From assembly GCA_964016885.1 (NCBI GenBank), contig OZ024741.1, positions 114,204,001-114,268,000 of the forward strand: a stretch of DNA of 64,000 nt, written 5' to 3'. The position numbers and the translations under genes were made by a program. Positions within the stretch are counted from its first letter, which is position 1, and every line of letters begins with the position of its first letter. This stretch comes from Eledone cirrhosa. Taxonomy: Eukaryota. The notes beneath the pieces are model-generated. The model was not told the origin of the DNA. It saw only the letters and a list, made by a program, of their open reading frames with translations, and did not search any database. Below are positions 31-62,490 of this stretch, piece by piece.

Positions 31-66
<36 letters not shown>

Positions 67-340
67 TAAACGGAAAAAATGAAACGAAATTTCATTTCTC
101 ACTCTTAGTACGGCTGTTACTTAAATATAAGTATGTATACGTACATACATATATGTATACAGATGTACAGTAGTATATATATATATATATACATACATGC
201 ACACATATATATATGTACGTATGGATTTACTGAGCATTTATTTATTATAATGCTCGGTTTGTTTGTAAACAAACATCCCGAATTAAGCCGTACAGTGTTT
301 AGCAACCATTTTTGCCCTTTTGTTCAACACTGACAAAGGA

Positions 341-383
341 AGGATGTACTAGTTTCAAGCTTATTAGCTATCGTCAGCACCGT
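341..383 (-). ncRNA. Minimal type-I hammerhead ribozyme (inverted copy)
   Basis: Reverse complement of the 853-895 motif, with one stem I mismatch (catcct). Confidence 0.75.
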
Positions 384-852
384 ATACCTTCCTGCCAGAT
401 GATTGAAAGTCTGAAAGTATATACTTTCCTTATGCCTATTAACAGCTGAGCAGCCTAATTTGCATATCGAGTGAGTTAATCGGCCGGGCGCACCGAAAAC
501 TTAATTTGGGATGTTTGTTTACAAACAAACCGAGCATTATAATAAATGCTCGGTAAATCCATACGTACATATATATATGTGTGCATGTATGTATATATAT
601 ACATACTACTATACGTCTGTATACATATATGTATATACGTATACATGATGATGATGATGATGATGATACTTATATTTAAGTAACAGCCGTACTAAGAGTG
701 AGAAATGAAATTTTGTTTCATTTTTTCCGTTTATCGTTTTCGGTGCGCCTGGCCGATTAACTCACTTGATATGCAAATTAGGCTGCTCAGCTTTTAATAT
801 GCATAAGGAAAGTATATACTTTCAGACGTTCAATCATCTGGCAGGAAGGTAT

Positions 853-895
853 ACGGTGCTGACGATAGCTAATAAGCTTGAAACTAGTACATCGT
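853..895 (+). ncRNA. Minimal type-I hammerhead ribozyme
   Basis: acggtg-CTGACGA-t-agct(aata)agct-t-GAAA-ctagt-A-catcgt: stem I acggtg/catcgt, stem II agct/agct, palindromic stem III ACTAGT, predicted GUA cleavage after 889. Confidence 0.85.
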
Positions 896-1282
896 TCCTT
901 TGTCAGTGTTGAACAAAAGGGCAACGATGGTTGCTAAACACTGTACGGCTTAATTCAGGATGTTTGTTTACAAACAAACCGAGCATTATAATAAATGCTC
1001 CATAAATCCATACGTACATATATATATATGTGTGCATGTATGTATATATATACATACTACTGTACGTCTGTATACATATATGTATGTATGTATACATACT
1101 TATATTTAAGTAACAGCCGTACTAAGAGTGAGAAATGAAATTTTGTTTCATTTTTTCCGTTTATCGTCTTCGGTGTGCCCGGCCGATTAATTTACTCGAT
1201 ATGCAAATTAGGCTGCTCAGCCGTTAATATGCATAAGGAAAGTATATACTTTCAGACATTCAATCATCTGGCAGGAAGGTAT

Positions 1283-1325
1283 ACGGTGCTGACGATAGCT
1301 AATAAGTTTGAAACTAGTACATCGT
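1283..1325 (+). ncRNA. Minimal type-I hammerhead ribozyme (second tandem copy)
   Basis: Same as 853-895; stem II agct/agtt keeps pairing through G-U; predicted cleavage after 1319. Confidence 0.85.
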
Positions 1326-1527
1326 TCCTTTGTCAGTGTTGAACAAAAGGGCAACGATGGTTGCTAAACACTGTACGGCTTAATTTGGGATGTTTGTTTA
1401 CAAACAAACCGAGCATTATAATAAATGCTCGGTAAATCCATACGTACATATATATATGTGTTTGCATGTATATATATATATACATACTACTGTACGTCTG
1501 TATACATATATGTATGTACGTATACAT

Positions 1528-31935: not shown

Positions 31936-31986
31936 GTCTTATTACTCTGGAGTTTCGTCTGTTTATCACAGGGTCATCAGACTAGA
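31936..31986 (-). ncRNA. Degenerate hammerhead-like motif
   Basis: Minus strand tctagt-CTGATGA-ccctgt(gataa)acagac-GAAA-ctccagagt-A-ataaga; stem I partly mismatched. Confidence 0.45.
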
Positions 31987-37983: not shown

Positions 37984-38065
37984 ACTTCCAACTAATTAGT
38001 TTCTGGAATGGAGTAAATATATTTTCCGAAGAATATACAGAAAAGCATTCCGTCGTCAGGAAAGT
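37984..38065 (-). ncRNA. Type-I hammerhead ribozyme (inverted copy of 38579-38660)
   Basis: Reverse complement of 38579-38660. Confidence 0.75.
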
Positions 38066-38578: not shown

Positions 38579-38660
38579 ACTTTCCTGACGACGGAATGCT
38601 TTTCTGTATATTCTTCGGAAAATATATTTACTCCATTCCAGAAACTAATTAGTTGGAAGT
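38579..38660 (+). ncRNA. Type-I hammerhead ribozyme with extended stem II
   Basis: actttc-CTGACGA-c-ggaatg..cattcc-a-GAAA-ctaattagt-T-ggaagt; palindromic stem III ACTAATTAGT. Confidence 0.75.
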
Positions 38661-39693: not shown

Positions 39694-39786
39694 ATATATA
39701 TAAACTATAATAAATTAATGAGTGCGGGACTGTATACGGTTTATTTCTTTTAATTCAGTTAGTAAAATAAGTTTTGGATTATTTTG

Positions 39787-40290
39787 AATAAATAATTGTT
39801 TCTACTTTTGGCACAAGGCCAGCAATTATTCCAGTGTATTACTGGTACTTTATTTTATCGACCCCGTAAGGATGAAAGGCAAAGTTAACCTCGGCGGGAT
39901 TTGAAATCAGATCGTGAAGAGCCGTAACTTTTTGCTGCAAAGCATGGCGTCCGACCCTCTACCGATACTGCCAATCCACTGCCCTTTGAATAAATAATTG
40001 TTTCTACTTTAGGCACAAGGCCAGCAATTACCCAGTGCATTACTGGTTCTTTATTTTATCGATCCCGTAAGGATGAAAGGCAAAGTCAACCTCGGCGGGA
40101 TTTGAACTCAGATCGTAAAGGGACGTAACTATGCTGGAAAGCATGGCGTCCGACCCTCTACCGATACTGCCAATCCACCGCCCTTATAAATAATTGTTTC
40201 TTCTATTGGCACAAGGCCAGCAATTATCCAGTACATTACTGGTACTTTATTTTATCGACCCCGTAAGGATGATAAACTAAAGTACCAGTA
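39787..40290 (-). mobile_element. Three stacked copies of tRNA-derived SINE family 2 (Nin-domain-like core, (ATT)n tail)
   Basis: Core GCCTTTCATCCTTACGGGGTCGATAAAATAAAGTACC on the minus strand; B box GTTCAAATCC; heads at 39984 and 40183. Confidence 0.85.
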
Positions 40291-40729: not shown

Positions 40730-40765
40730 TCTTAACGTTTCGGGCACTAGTCCTTCATCAGAAGA
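40730..40765 (-). ncRNA. Minimal PLE-type hammerhead motif
   Basis: Minus strand tctt-CTGATGA-aggactagtgccc-GAAA-cgt-T-aaga; palindromic ACGT stem III. Confidence 0.65.
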
Positions 40766-59195: not shown

Positions 59196-59756
59196 GGTTT
59201 TCCAGTGCTCCCCATGATATCGTTGTCTTTTGTTCTGGTAGCAGTTCGTTTGTCCACCCCTTTCACCTGTTTTTTGTTGTAAGTAGTTCTAGATGTATGT
59301 ATTACCTCATTGTGTATATTTCTTTTCCTTTCCTTTTTCTTTCTTTTTTCTCTTTTTATTTGTAGTATTATGATTATGGTTATATTGACAAATAAATTTC
59401 TATATTTTAGATATTAAACATACAAAATCAAATATAATTTATAGAAAGGTTATGATTATCAATTTAGATAATATTATGTATACAATAGTGTGTTAATTAA
59501 AAAAGGGGGGAATTATTTATATCAAAGTTGAGTAAATATATTAATACATAAATGTTAAGCATGTTCAAATTTAAAAAATGGCAGGTGGTCGGGAGGGAAT
59601 AAAGTCTACATTAAAAGAGTATGGACATACAGAGAAAGTAAATAAACTTTTAATGTAGGAGATACTAAAACTATTAATTTTGCAGTTCAAAATCAATTAT
59701 GAATTCTAAAAAAAATAATAGTTATAATGTTATAAAATCAGGTATATATATATATT

Positions 59757-60160
59757 GATATGGCTTAAAAGAGGCTTGTTTGCATAATTGCAAACAAATC
59801 GAATATCATCATTAATATTCGATTTATTGTATTCAGCCATGTAAAGCGATAACTTTTTGTTAGTTATTTGAATATGGCAAAGCCGGCCATTAATCGCTCA
59901 TATACATGAAACTGACTGGCCTATCTGCTGATATGCAAATCTGGCTGATCAGTCGCTGTATATTTTAGAAAATATCATATATTTTCACTAGTTCTCATAG
60001 TTGGCAGGTGAACAGTGAACTGCACTGATGAAGGGTAATCACCCAGAAACATTAGTGTTTGCAGTTCTGTTTTCATGCTAACACAAGAGCAAAACTGACA
60101 TGGCTTAAAAGAGGCTTGTTTGCATAATTGCAAATGAATCGAATATTATTATTAATATTC
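59757..60160 (+). mobile_element. ORF-less hammerhead-bearing element, 340-bp unit with ~60-bp terminal redundancy
   Basis: 59761-59820 is repeated at 60101-60160. Confidence 0.8.
60017..60067 (+). ncRNA. Type-I hammerhead ribozyme
   Basis: gaactgca-CTGATGA-a-gggt(aatc)accc-a-GAAA-ca(ttag)tgt-T-tgcagttc: perfect 8-bp stem I, 4-bp stem II, 3-bp stem III; predicted GUU cleavage after 60059. Confidence 0.88.
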
Positions 60161-60205
60161 AAAAAACTCAGATTACATTAATTATATATATATATAATAA
60201 ATGTA

Positions 60206-62490
60206 CATTACATAGAGACCAAGAGGGAAGCTAGGCGACAAGTATACTTAGCTAGGAGGGAAGCAGAGGATAGAAAATTCAAGCATAATTTGCAACGTGA
60301 GGACCAGAAATAGGAGGTGTTCAAGATTGCGAGGCAGTGTGGCAGAGAGAGTTGTGATGTCATTGGAGAGAAGTGTATCCGGAATGATAAAGGTGAGCTT
60401 GCCCTCACAAGTGCTGAGAAGAAAGATGCATGGAAGAGTCATTATGATAGATTACTAAATGAGGAGAATGCATGGGAAGAAGAGACCCTACCCCAAGTAG
60501 ACCCTATAGAGGGGCCAGCAGTACAAGTCAGCAGCAGCGTAGTAAGTAAGGCAATCAAAGATATGAAGATGGGGAAGGCAACCGGTCCATCGGGTATAGC
60601 TGCTGAGATGCTGAAGGCATCTGGGTCTGTAGGTCACACTATAACCACACGTATTGTTAACCAGGTAATACTAGAAGGTGTCATACCAAAAGATTGGTGC
60701 AGTAGCATCATTGTCAACTGCTACAAAGGTAAAGGTGATGCACTCGATAGAGGAAACTATAGAGGTATAAAGCTGATGGACCAGGTCATGAAAGTAACAG
60801 AAAGAGTTATAGCACAGTTGATTAGGGACCGGGTGAAACTAGATGAGATGTAATTTGGGTTTGTACCAGGAAGAGGCACCACTGATGCCCTCTTCCTTGT
60901 GAGGCAGTTACAGGAAAAGTACCTAGCTAAAAGTAAGCCACTCTACCTGGCATTCGTCGATCTCGAGAAAGCCTTTGACAGAGTTCCACCTGCTGTAATC
61001 TGGTGGGCTCTTAGAAAACTAGGAGTAGATGAATGGCTTGTGAAAGCTGTACAAGTCATGTATAGGGGAGCAGTCAGCAAAGTTAGGATTAGCAATGAGT
61101 ATAGCGAGGAATTTAGCGTACAGGTTGGTGTCCACCAGGGCTCTGTTCTTAGCCCTCTCCTGTTCATCATAGTCCTGCAGGTAATAACGGAGGAGTTTAA
61201 GACCGGATGCCCATGGGAACTCCTGTACGCTGATGACCTCGCACTTATAGCTGAATCTATGGTAGAACTAGAGAAGAAATTCCAAACTTGGAAGCAGGGA
61301 CTAGAAAGAAAGGGTCTCAAAGTCAACATGACAAAGACTAAGGTCCTTGTAAGTAGACGAGAAAACAGAACCCAGATCCCCTCAGGAAATGGCCTTGCTC
61401 AGTATGTAGGAAAGGTGTAGGTAGGAACTCGATTTTTGCTCCAAATGCAATCAATGGGTACACAAGAGATGTAGCGGGTCTCAGGAAGCTTAATTAAGAA
61501 TGTAGGCTTCCCATGCAGCAGCTGTACTGGGACAGCAAGCAGCAAACAGCCACAGGAAACAAGTACCACCAATCTCTGGGAGGGCTCTGTAGAGATATTA
61601 GACAGCTTCTGCTACCTAGGTGACCGAATTAGCAGCGGAGGTGGGTGTTCAGAAAGTACAATAACTAGGGTAAGAACAGGATGGAAGAAGTTCAGGGAAC
61701 TGTTACCCCTGCTAGCTGCAAAAGGCTTCTCCCTCAAAATGAAAGGCAGACTGTATGATGCGTGTATCCGAACAGCAATGTTACATGGTAGTGAGACCTA
61801 GGCGCTGAAGGTGGAAGACTTACGTAGATTAGAGAGAAATGAAGCCTGCATGCTCCGATGGATGTGTAATAGTAATATACGCGAACGACAAAGCATAAAT
61901 GAATTGAGAGAGAGACTGAGCATAAGAGGAATCAAATGCTGTGTGCAGGAATGGCGGATGCGTTGGTATGGACATGTGATGCATATGAAGGATGACAGCT
62001 GCATAAAAAGGTGCAGAGCACTAGAAGTCGATGGAAACCGCAGAGTGGGGAGACCGAAGATGACCTGGGATGAGGTGATAAAAGCCGACCTTACCCAATT
62101 ACACCTCTCAAAGGCGATGACACATGACCGTGACCTCTGGCATCACGCAGTAATACAAAGTACCCGACCTCCCATGGGTACAAGCTGAAGCATATAGACA
62201 ATATGCCCCCACACCCTCCTACTGCAAGGTGGTCGTGGAGGTGCCACGGCAAAAAAGCACCCAGCCCACACTGTAAAATGGACGTGTAGGCGCCACGAAA
62301 AGCACCCAGCACTCACTGTAAATGAGGTTGGTGTTAGGAAAGGCATCCAGCTGTAGAAATCAAGCCAAATCAGTTCCTGTATGAGCATGGCATGGTTAGC
62401 CGACCAGACACTGCCCACAACAGGACAACCCGTCTAACCCATGCTAGCGTGGAAGAACGGACGTAAAACGGTGATGATGATGATGATGAT
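60206..62490 (+). mobile_element. 5'-truncated RTE LINE (family B) with stops and frameshifts
   Basis: Reverse-complement match to 15901-18185; (GAT)n tail. Confidence 0.93.

Follow-up and report, generated by a model that had tools for sequence, protein, structure and literature searches.

A probable hammerhead retrozyme with a snRNA promoter-like upstream block in the genome of Eledone cirrhosa

The window analysed here is a stretch of 64,000 nucleotides of the Eledone cirrhosa genome (contig OZ024741.1, positions 114,204,001 to 114,268,000 of the forward strand), and window positions are counted from its first letter. To judge from its sequence, the element at 59760-60179, termed B, is probably a decayed, protein-free hammerhead retrozyme that carries an upstream block resembling an snRNA promoter, is likely transcribed, yields an RNA predicted to cut itself and is likely copied by Penelope-type elements. 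The class is already described as the non-LTR retrozymes, including examples in mussel (PMC7229834). Like them, the units carry a type I hammerhead, occur as short non-coding tandem or multimer copies and have neither an LTR nor an ORF of their own. Features of B and of the related A elements are collected in Table 1.

Table 1. Features of the B and A elements in the window, with strand and basis.
Feature	Position	Strand	Basis or remark
(TA)n, 5' flank of B insertion	59743..59758		sequence
5'-truncated end of upstream B unit (partial tandem)	59760..59822	+	93% identical to 60100-60160
GGCTTAA in truncated upstream B piece	59762-59768	+	its two hairpins at 59776-59822
Full B unit	59823..60179	+	lacks ~18-19 nt near 60094 that relatives carry
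Octamer word TATGCAAAT-NNG	59932..59943	+	matches -76 to -78 of own-genome U6 genes
TCAGT box (59949-59953) and TATA-like CATATA (59976-59981)	59946..59984	+	spacing as in U1/U2/U5 promoters
Predicted transcription start, A of GGC|AG, 57 nt past TCAG	60006	+	inferred from box at -55 to -58 in 14 snRNA genes
Type I hammerhead with extended stem I	60000..60082	+	sequence, folding, lineage covariation
B outer helix (gttggca : tgctaac)	60000-60006:60076-60082	+
B hammerhead stem I	60017-60024:60060-60067	+	CTGATGA at 60025-60031
B hammerhead stem II	60033-60036:60041-60044	+	GAAA at 60046-60049
B hammerhead stem III	60049-60051:60056-60058	+	predicted cut after 60059 (GUU)
3' part of B unit: GGCTTAA (60102-60108), two hairpins, fixed 3' end	60100..60179	+
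(TA)n, 3' flank of B insertion	60180..60199		sequence; 20/23 B loci end in such a run
Lineage A insertion: 5'-truncated piece and two 430-nt units	500..1527	+	sequence, profile, stem pairing
A units: octamer	771/1201	+	TCAG at 787/1217, TATATA at 813
A units: predicted start	843	+	cores at 859-883 and 1289-1313; predicted cut after 889/1319 (GUA)
Inverted 5' copy of A unit (core 353-377)	66..500	-	~70-nt extension, ends in (TA)n

The B element consists of 63 nt of an upstream unit followed by one full unit, the whole set in (TA)n. Contigs from run X1 reproduced the tandem junction, joining 60165-60179 back to 59822, and covered B throughout; run X4 gave five low-depth pieces and run X5 none, so that the X4 and X5 reads were too few to place B in another species. 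The copy is degraded, with GUU at the cleavage site against GUC in the family, a loss of 18-19 nt and a single ribozyme (monomer); the GUU triplet was also present in the run X1 contigs. Folding z-scores were -3.2 for 59995-60090 and -7.5 for 59760-60160. The AT hairpin of this copy (59968-59986) overlaps the TATA-like word, and the predicted start at 60006 lies 54 nt ahead of the predicted cut. At gathering score the window had no Rfam match, and by E-value there were only chance matches at 59600-60300. Just past the insertion, at 60314-62188 (+), begin the broken reverse-transcriptase frames of a LINE, which we take from their motifs to be RTE-like; they had no Penelope match.

In the A insertion the predicted start (843) precedes the predicted cut by 47 nt. 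Among sequencing runs no RNA run was listed as containing unit A, an outcome that has no bearing on expression. A separate insertion at 1528-1990 breaks the AT-rich end of the A array and had no Rfam match; its first 60 nt, by eye, presumably resemble a LINE 5' end with an HDV-type ribozyme. Further hammerhead-like cores at 40738-40761 (-) and 31953-31980 (-) are without the octamer block and are probably minimal Penelope-type motifs, and 38023-38059 (-) and 38585-38621 (+) form an inverted pair of another repeat that ends in (TA)n.

The initial annotation had presented A and B as one architecture shared in spite of diverged sequence. Its observations were borne out: the upstream word ATGCAAAT was found at 771 and 59933, 88 and 92 nt before CTGANGA, all architectural features, including the AT hairpin and the two adjacent hairpins, lay where they had been placed, and the cut position predicted from sequence, after 60059, was correct. 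The 23-nt upstream pattern common to both elements occurs four times in the window, in three A copies and one B copy, where 0.01 occurrences would be expected. The outer helices are present (ctggca 838-843 : tgtcag 901-906 in A; Table 1 for B) and 6 of 7 pairs were formed in 108 of the 119 copies scored (of 152), with arms that differ by lineage, but a cross-lineage control failed to separate own from foreign arms. GGCTTAA occurs in both elements but is limited to lineages A (34/57) and B (16/37), with 2/58 in the other five lineages described below. The GGCTG match is real but partly an accident of the window copy, since the word adjoining the ribozyme in B is usually CAGGCCG (26 counts, against 6 of CTGGCTG). 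A second copy of the octamer word is common in B, and a 33-nt duplication that doubles it is present in many B copies (B loci L001-L030, L091-L120 and L294-L333); CpG decay as the source of GGCTG in the window copy was considered and dropped, since the distal octamer repeat normally reads GGCTG. The A and B units are, however, plainly homologous by blastn (104/166 positions, 63%, E 3e-9, plus 42/62), so that their likeness is one of ordinary homology and not of fold alone.

First-look candidates for the two units in the genome numbered 4,043 and 2,264, of which the best 40 of each were scored; among these best-scored matches, near-full-length relatives were 78-90% identical to B and 91-97% identical to A. 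Patterns running from the octamer to the hammerhead core gave 11,428 and 5,734 matches genome-wide, disjoint and mostly of lineage A, and patterns with other words after the octamer gave 2,619 and 1,552; the sets overlap in part, and reversed controls gave 0-3 matches. With more than 17,000 exact-pattern matches and thousands of dispersed and tandem copies, the hammerhead repeat is very abundant. From the fetched loci 159 distinct copies were taken, of which 152 were kept in seven lineages (A 57, B 37, E 32, C 11, D 9, G 4, H 2; D and G were grouped by eye) and 7 singletons were left out, so that A and B are two of at least seven related lineages; the invariance of the octamer across them is built in, as the search patterns demanded it. 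Inspection by eye showed neither terminal inverted repeats nor long terminal repeats, and descent from a Helitron-type or LTR element was set aside on that ground. A long tandem array of lineage A units with a period of ~428 nt and higher-order variants occupies G000:C1:51772507-51793523. At G000:C1:143343540-143791156, near-identical C-type copies recur every ~50-105 kb and are probably a segmental repeat carrying one element.

Stems I and II of the hammerhead covary between lineages. Pairing by lineage majority held at 45 of 49 positions of stem I, a figure that leans on a cut register chosen to maximise that stem, and at 25 of 28 positions of stem II; permutations of the lineages did as well in 2 and 8 of 5,040 cases, respectively. 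With the stem I register set, features independent of it came into line, among them A15.1-U16.1, present in nearly all copies, and the cleavage triplets. On a plain, unfitted alignment of 32 copies, stem II was 77.5% paired with 36 double changes (0/500 shuffles), and its covariation was 0.489 against no more than 0.141 in slid controls. The commonest cleavage triplets were GUA in A (50/57), GUC in B (27/37), GUU in C (8/11) and AUA in E (18/32). RNA of the units is predicted to cut itself at the hammerhead; for A and C, whose stem III is palindromic, the prediction is that a dimer is required. A hairpin around the TATA-like word reached -3 kcal/mol or better in 122 of the 152 copies, a count made without a shuffle control, and its arms likewise differ by lineage. 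Absence of covariation, which would have told against the initial annotation, was not what the collected copies showed, and its view of a family of structured non-coding mobile elements is upheld by several diverged lineages, covarying hammerhead stems and spread without an ORF of their own.

Upstream of the ribozyme the units share a block composed of the octamer, TCAG at +16, a TATA-like word at +42/43 and C|AG at +72/73, which was compared with the snRNA genes of the same genome (L206-L293), where U1, U2, U5 and U6 all lie in tandem clusters. U6 genes carry ATGC(A/T)AAT at -76 to -78 in 6 of 9 distinct upstream rows (three separate loci), followed as in the elements by (T/G)AG, and a TATA at -30. 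For U1, U2 and U5, 14 distinct upstreams were chosen from 25 rows, and every one has YCART at -55 to -58 together with a TATA-like word around -30; U1/U2/U5 genes mostly have the word AATTAAAT near -85 as well, and the octamer was found at its place in 0/25 rows. A profile built from the 14 upstreams peaked at octamer+16 in 36/37 B and 9/11 C copies, with medians of 10.0 and 8.9 bits against a 99.9th percentile of 2.7 bits in a background of 59,280 windows; the window B copy scored 16.8 bits. In lineages A, D, E, G and H the profile was weaker, the site falling within the top 1.4-3.8% of background and ranking 4-11 (median) among ~315 positions, and the window A copies scored -13.8 and -8.4 bits. 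The unit of a 201-nt tandem repeat at window 39783-40272 was also encountered inserted upstream of a U6 gene (L232), displacing the octamer to -270.

Spacing within the block is held closely. C|AG lies 56 nt past TCAG in 53/57 A copies, 56-57 nt past it in 11/11 C copies and mostly 57-58 nt past it in B and E. TCAG, TATA and C|AG were absent from the patterns that gave 2,619 and 1,552 matches, and copies found by similarity alone showed the same spacing in 19/23 A and 10/21 B copies that could be anchored (30 of each taken). In its layout, then, the block looks like an snRNA promoter of the host, and in its composition it is a hybrid of U6 and U1/U2/U5 words absent from every host gene examined, because no U1/U2/U5 row has the octamer at that place. 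The best-kept block of the units is conserved in sequence and spacing and matches host snRNA promoters, so that the proposal that the shared features were kept for fold and not for sequence is not supported; the earlier interpretation as a whole is partly supported.

That proposal nevertheless deserves weighing in its own right, as a reading in which the upstream words are RNA structure or RNA-protein signals and transcription comes by read-through from host promoters. The hairpin around the TATA-like word and the well-paired outer helix, with their lineage-specific arms, speak for it, as does a review by whose account retrozymes seem to lack promoters (PMC7761336). Against it, host snRNA promoters show the same words at matching distances from a fixed C|AG, and the distance from TCAG to C|AG stays at 56-58 nt when that from octamer to core, on the ribozyme side, varies over 87-99 nt; the limits of the helix and hairpin controls given above weigh on the same side. 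We regard it as quite improbable. The pairing of the hairpin and outer helix upstream of the predicted start could mean that the real start lies further upstream; it also fits the mechanism proposed below, because that stretch belongs to the monomer. Another reading accepts a promoter but makes it U6-type, with polymerase III producing a short SINE-like RNA from GGCAG to the next T run and the promoter DNA being regained by rare read-through only. Octamer plus TATA is indeed the U6 layout in this genome, and T4 runs are rare past the predicted start (11/152 copies), features that would suit polymerase III. The octamer-to-TATA distance, on the other hand, is 42-43 nt in A, B, C and E against 46-50 in U6, and U6 upstreams score below 0 on the U1/U2/U5 (polymerase II) profile, on which B and C reach ~9-10 bits. 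T4 runs fall between octamer and predicted start in 85/152 copies and T5 runs on the promoter side in 86/152 inserted copies, so that a template RNA would have to cross such T-rich stretches routinely. This second reading appears unlikely. As to the enzyme, polymerase II is about twice as likely as polymerase III in view of the box, its spacing and the T runs that the template RNA must cross. In insects SNAPc serves both promoter types, according to the account in PMC1761439.

Insertions of the units bear the marks of Penelope-like elements, for which partial tandems, an inverted 5' copy, a tail at one end and microsatellite targets have been described (10.1101/2021.04.23.441226); all four were present. 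A (TA)n or (CA)n run lies past the 3' end in 16/19 A, 20/23 B and 6/18 E loci taken in genome order. An inverted 5' piece adjoins 33 of the 63 B insertions that aligned (out of 70 loci) and 26 of 59 A insertions. Where it does, 14 of the B cases have a tail on the main copy alone, 13 on the inverted copy alone, 0 on both and 6 on neither; the A cases divide, in the same order, into 10, 3, 1 and 12. Two or more cores occur in 18/59 A loci, with periods of 427-538 nt (one of 934), and about 9 of the 63 aligned B loci extend over two cores; the tandem junctions run unit to unit. In a pattern spotted after the fact, on which we base no claim, 7 of 28 B 5' ends fall within 256-274, near the cut at 270. 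The units behave as non-autonomous elements and are likely copied by Penelope-type elements.

A candidate source of enzymes is resident. A very young, near-identical Penelope-type family gave 36,578 first-look candidates, of which 150 were scored, with open frames of up to 1,218 aa; its protein, which by motif reading we take to be GIY-YIG and Neptune-like, had only a sub-threshold RVT_1 match in Pfam. Its members target (TA)n, end in a ~55-nt tail and carry a minimal hammerhead towards the 3' end. One member (L171, G000:C4:359080500-359090400) sits inside an A array, and the family was tried as the parent of the units from its position beside A (L058/L171) and rejected: it had inserted into the (TA)-rich part of the array, and its 3' end has a minimal hammerhead of its own. 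A second Penelope family beside an E copy (L172) was rejected as well, lying downstream of the copy and lacking the octamer block. The units are thus not the ends of either Penelope family examined, an identity that would have told against the initial annotation.

These data also bear on the idea that the units are simply 5'-truncated ends (pseudo-LTRs) of an autonomous Penelope-like element rather than independent elements. Their insertion anatomy is that of Penelope-like elements, and in Xenopus 24 of 57 retrozyme families are reported to match known elements, nearly all of them Penelope ends (bioRxiv 10.64898/2026.07.22.740005). Against this stand tandem junctions that run unit to unit with periods of 427-538 nt. 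Direct joining of a unit to a Penelope ORF was seen in 0 of 244 octamer-ribozyme loci (flanks of 1-4 kb, two protein families), and a same-strand Penelope ORF upstream within 2.5 kb in only 4 of 244 (three sites), each parted from the unit by 22-86 nt of (TA)n. No sequence block was common to the units and the tested Penelope family, and the octamer preceded the core in 0 of the 25 young-family copies in which a core was found (30 examined). We consider this origin very improbable.

For the preferred reading, a retrozyme with its own promoter-like block, the following cycle may be proposed. Polymerase would start 45-58 nt ahead of the cut site of unit n, so that a dimer would be transcribed from its first unit and the first ribozyme would cut. 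Transcription would continue across the AT-rich junction into unit n+1 and through its promoter DNA as far as the second ribozyme, and because it runs through that promoter, the cut-to-cut monomer (~360-540 nt) would carry it. A host ligase would circularise the monomer, as shown for other retrozymes (coral, mussel, axolotl; PMC7229834). Resident Penelope-type reverse transcriptase and GIY-YIG nuclease would then nick (TA)n and copy the RNA, once around or several times, from a primer placed at the AU-rich junction. A whole monomer could come only from two-ribozyme insertions (18/59 A and ~9/63 B loci), and not from the window B copy. The wider proposition is more tentative, and we put it at somewhat under an even chance: that these are self-promoting, circular SINE-like elements, in which a captured hybrid of U6 and U1/U2 promoters lies inside the cut-to-cut RNA, is rebuilt in each Penelope-driven round and is under dual constraint as DNA promoter and RNA fold.

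Of the systems already described, the nearest are the animal non-LTR retrozymes (Cervera and de la Pena 2020, PMC7229834), as characterised there: short, AT-rich, non-coding units of 350-500 nt in tandem and dispersed form, thousands of copies, a type I hammerhead with a short palindromic stem III and Penelope-like elements in the same genome. Circles were shown for those retrozymes and are a prediction for the units here. The strong transcription of animal retrozymes and the enzyme that copies them are treated as unsettled in the same work and in a 2020 review, by which retrozymes seem to have neither promoters nor conserved motifs pointing to a helper (PMC7229834, PMC7761336). Unlike in that account, a promoter-like block extends here across seven lineages and the insertions carry Penelope marks. 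The family makes both transcription and copying testable: it offers three promoter words and a start base to examine, the latter predicted, and its insertion marks implicate the young Penelope-type elements. The comparison also defines which words make up snRNA promoters in this animal, and shows tens of thousands of promoter-like blocks of this kind scattered in the genome.

Pseudo-LTRs of Penelope-like elements with hammerheads, as described in PMC4209133 and 10.1101/2021.04.23.441226, share the partial tandems, inverted 5' copy, one-end tail, microsatellite targets and type I hammerhead. The units differ from them in having no ORF, a hammerhead that is canonical, not minimal, and has an extended stem I, and a snRNA-type block that is missing from the resident family tested. 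Retrozymes have been proposed to be non-autonomous Penelope derivatives (Li, Clavereau and Pollet 2026, bioRxiv 10.64898/2026.07.22.740005); those too occur with Penelope-like elements and are proposed to use their enzymes, and only 1 of 9 predicted Xenopus retrozymes is reported to have cut in vitro, which tells against taking cutting for granted here. The link drawn there is sequence kinship with pseudo-LTRs, whereas here it is insertion anatomy, no parent having been found, and as far as the available text of that preprint goes, no promoter is described. In the literature searched no description of a promoter-bearing hammerhead repeat in a mollusc was found, although the family may already have been named, and the word 'ribozyme' is absent from the main text of the Octopus vulgaris repeat annotation (PMC13282606).

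The surprise is limited in that the class and the promoter idea both have precedents. For the latter the precedent is newt satellite 2, which reportedly has an octamer and a PSE and starts ~47 nt ahead of the cut, the same figure as is predicted for lineage A. It is a hammerhead repeat of ~330 nt in which polymerase II uses an internal promoter of snRNA type, as reported by Coats, Zhang and Epstein (1994), cited in PMC2220036. The present units differ from it in that the host is of invertebrate type, the words match the host's own U6 and U1/U2/U5 promoters, the octamer directly adjoins the box at ~-73, and the promoter is predicted from sequence. If the proposal is true, then, together with newt satellite 2, it would make the snRNA promoter a general and overlooked part of animal retrozymes and not a newt oddity.
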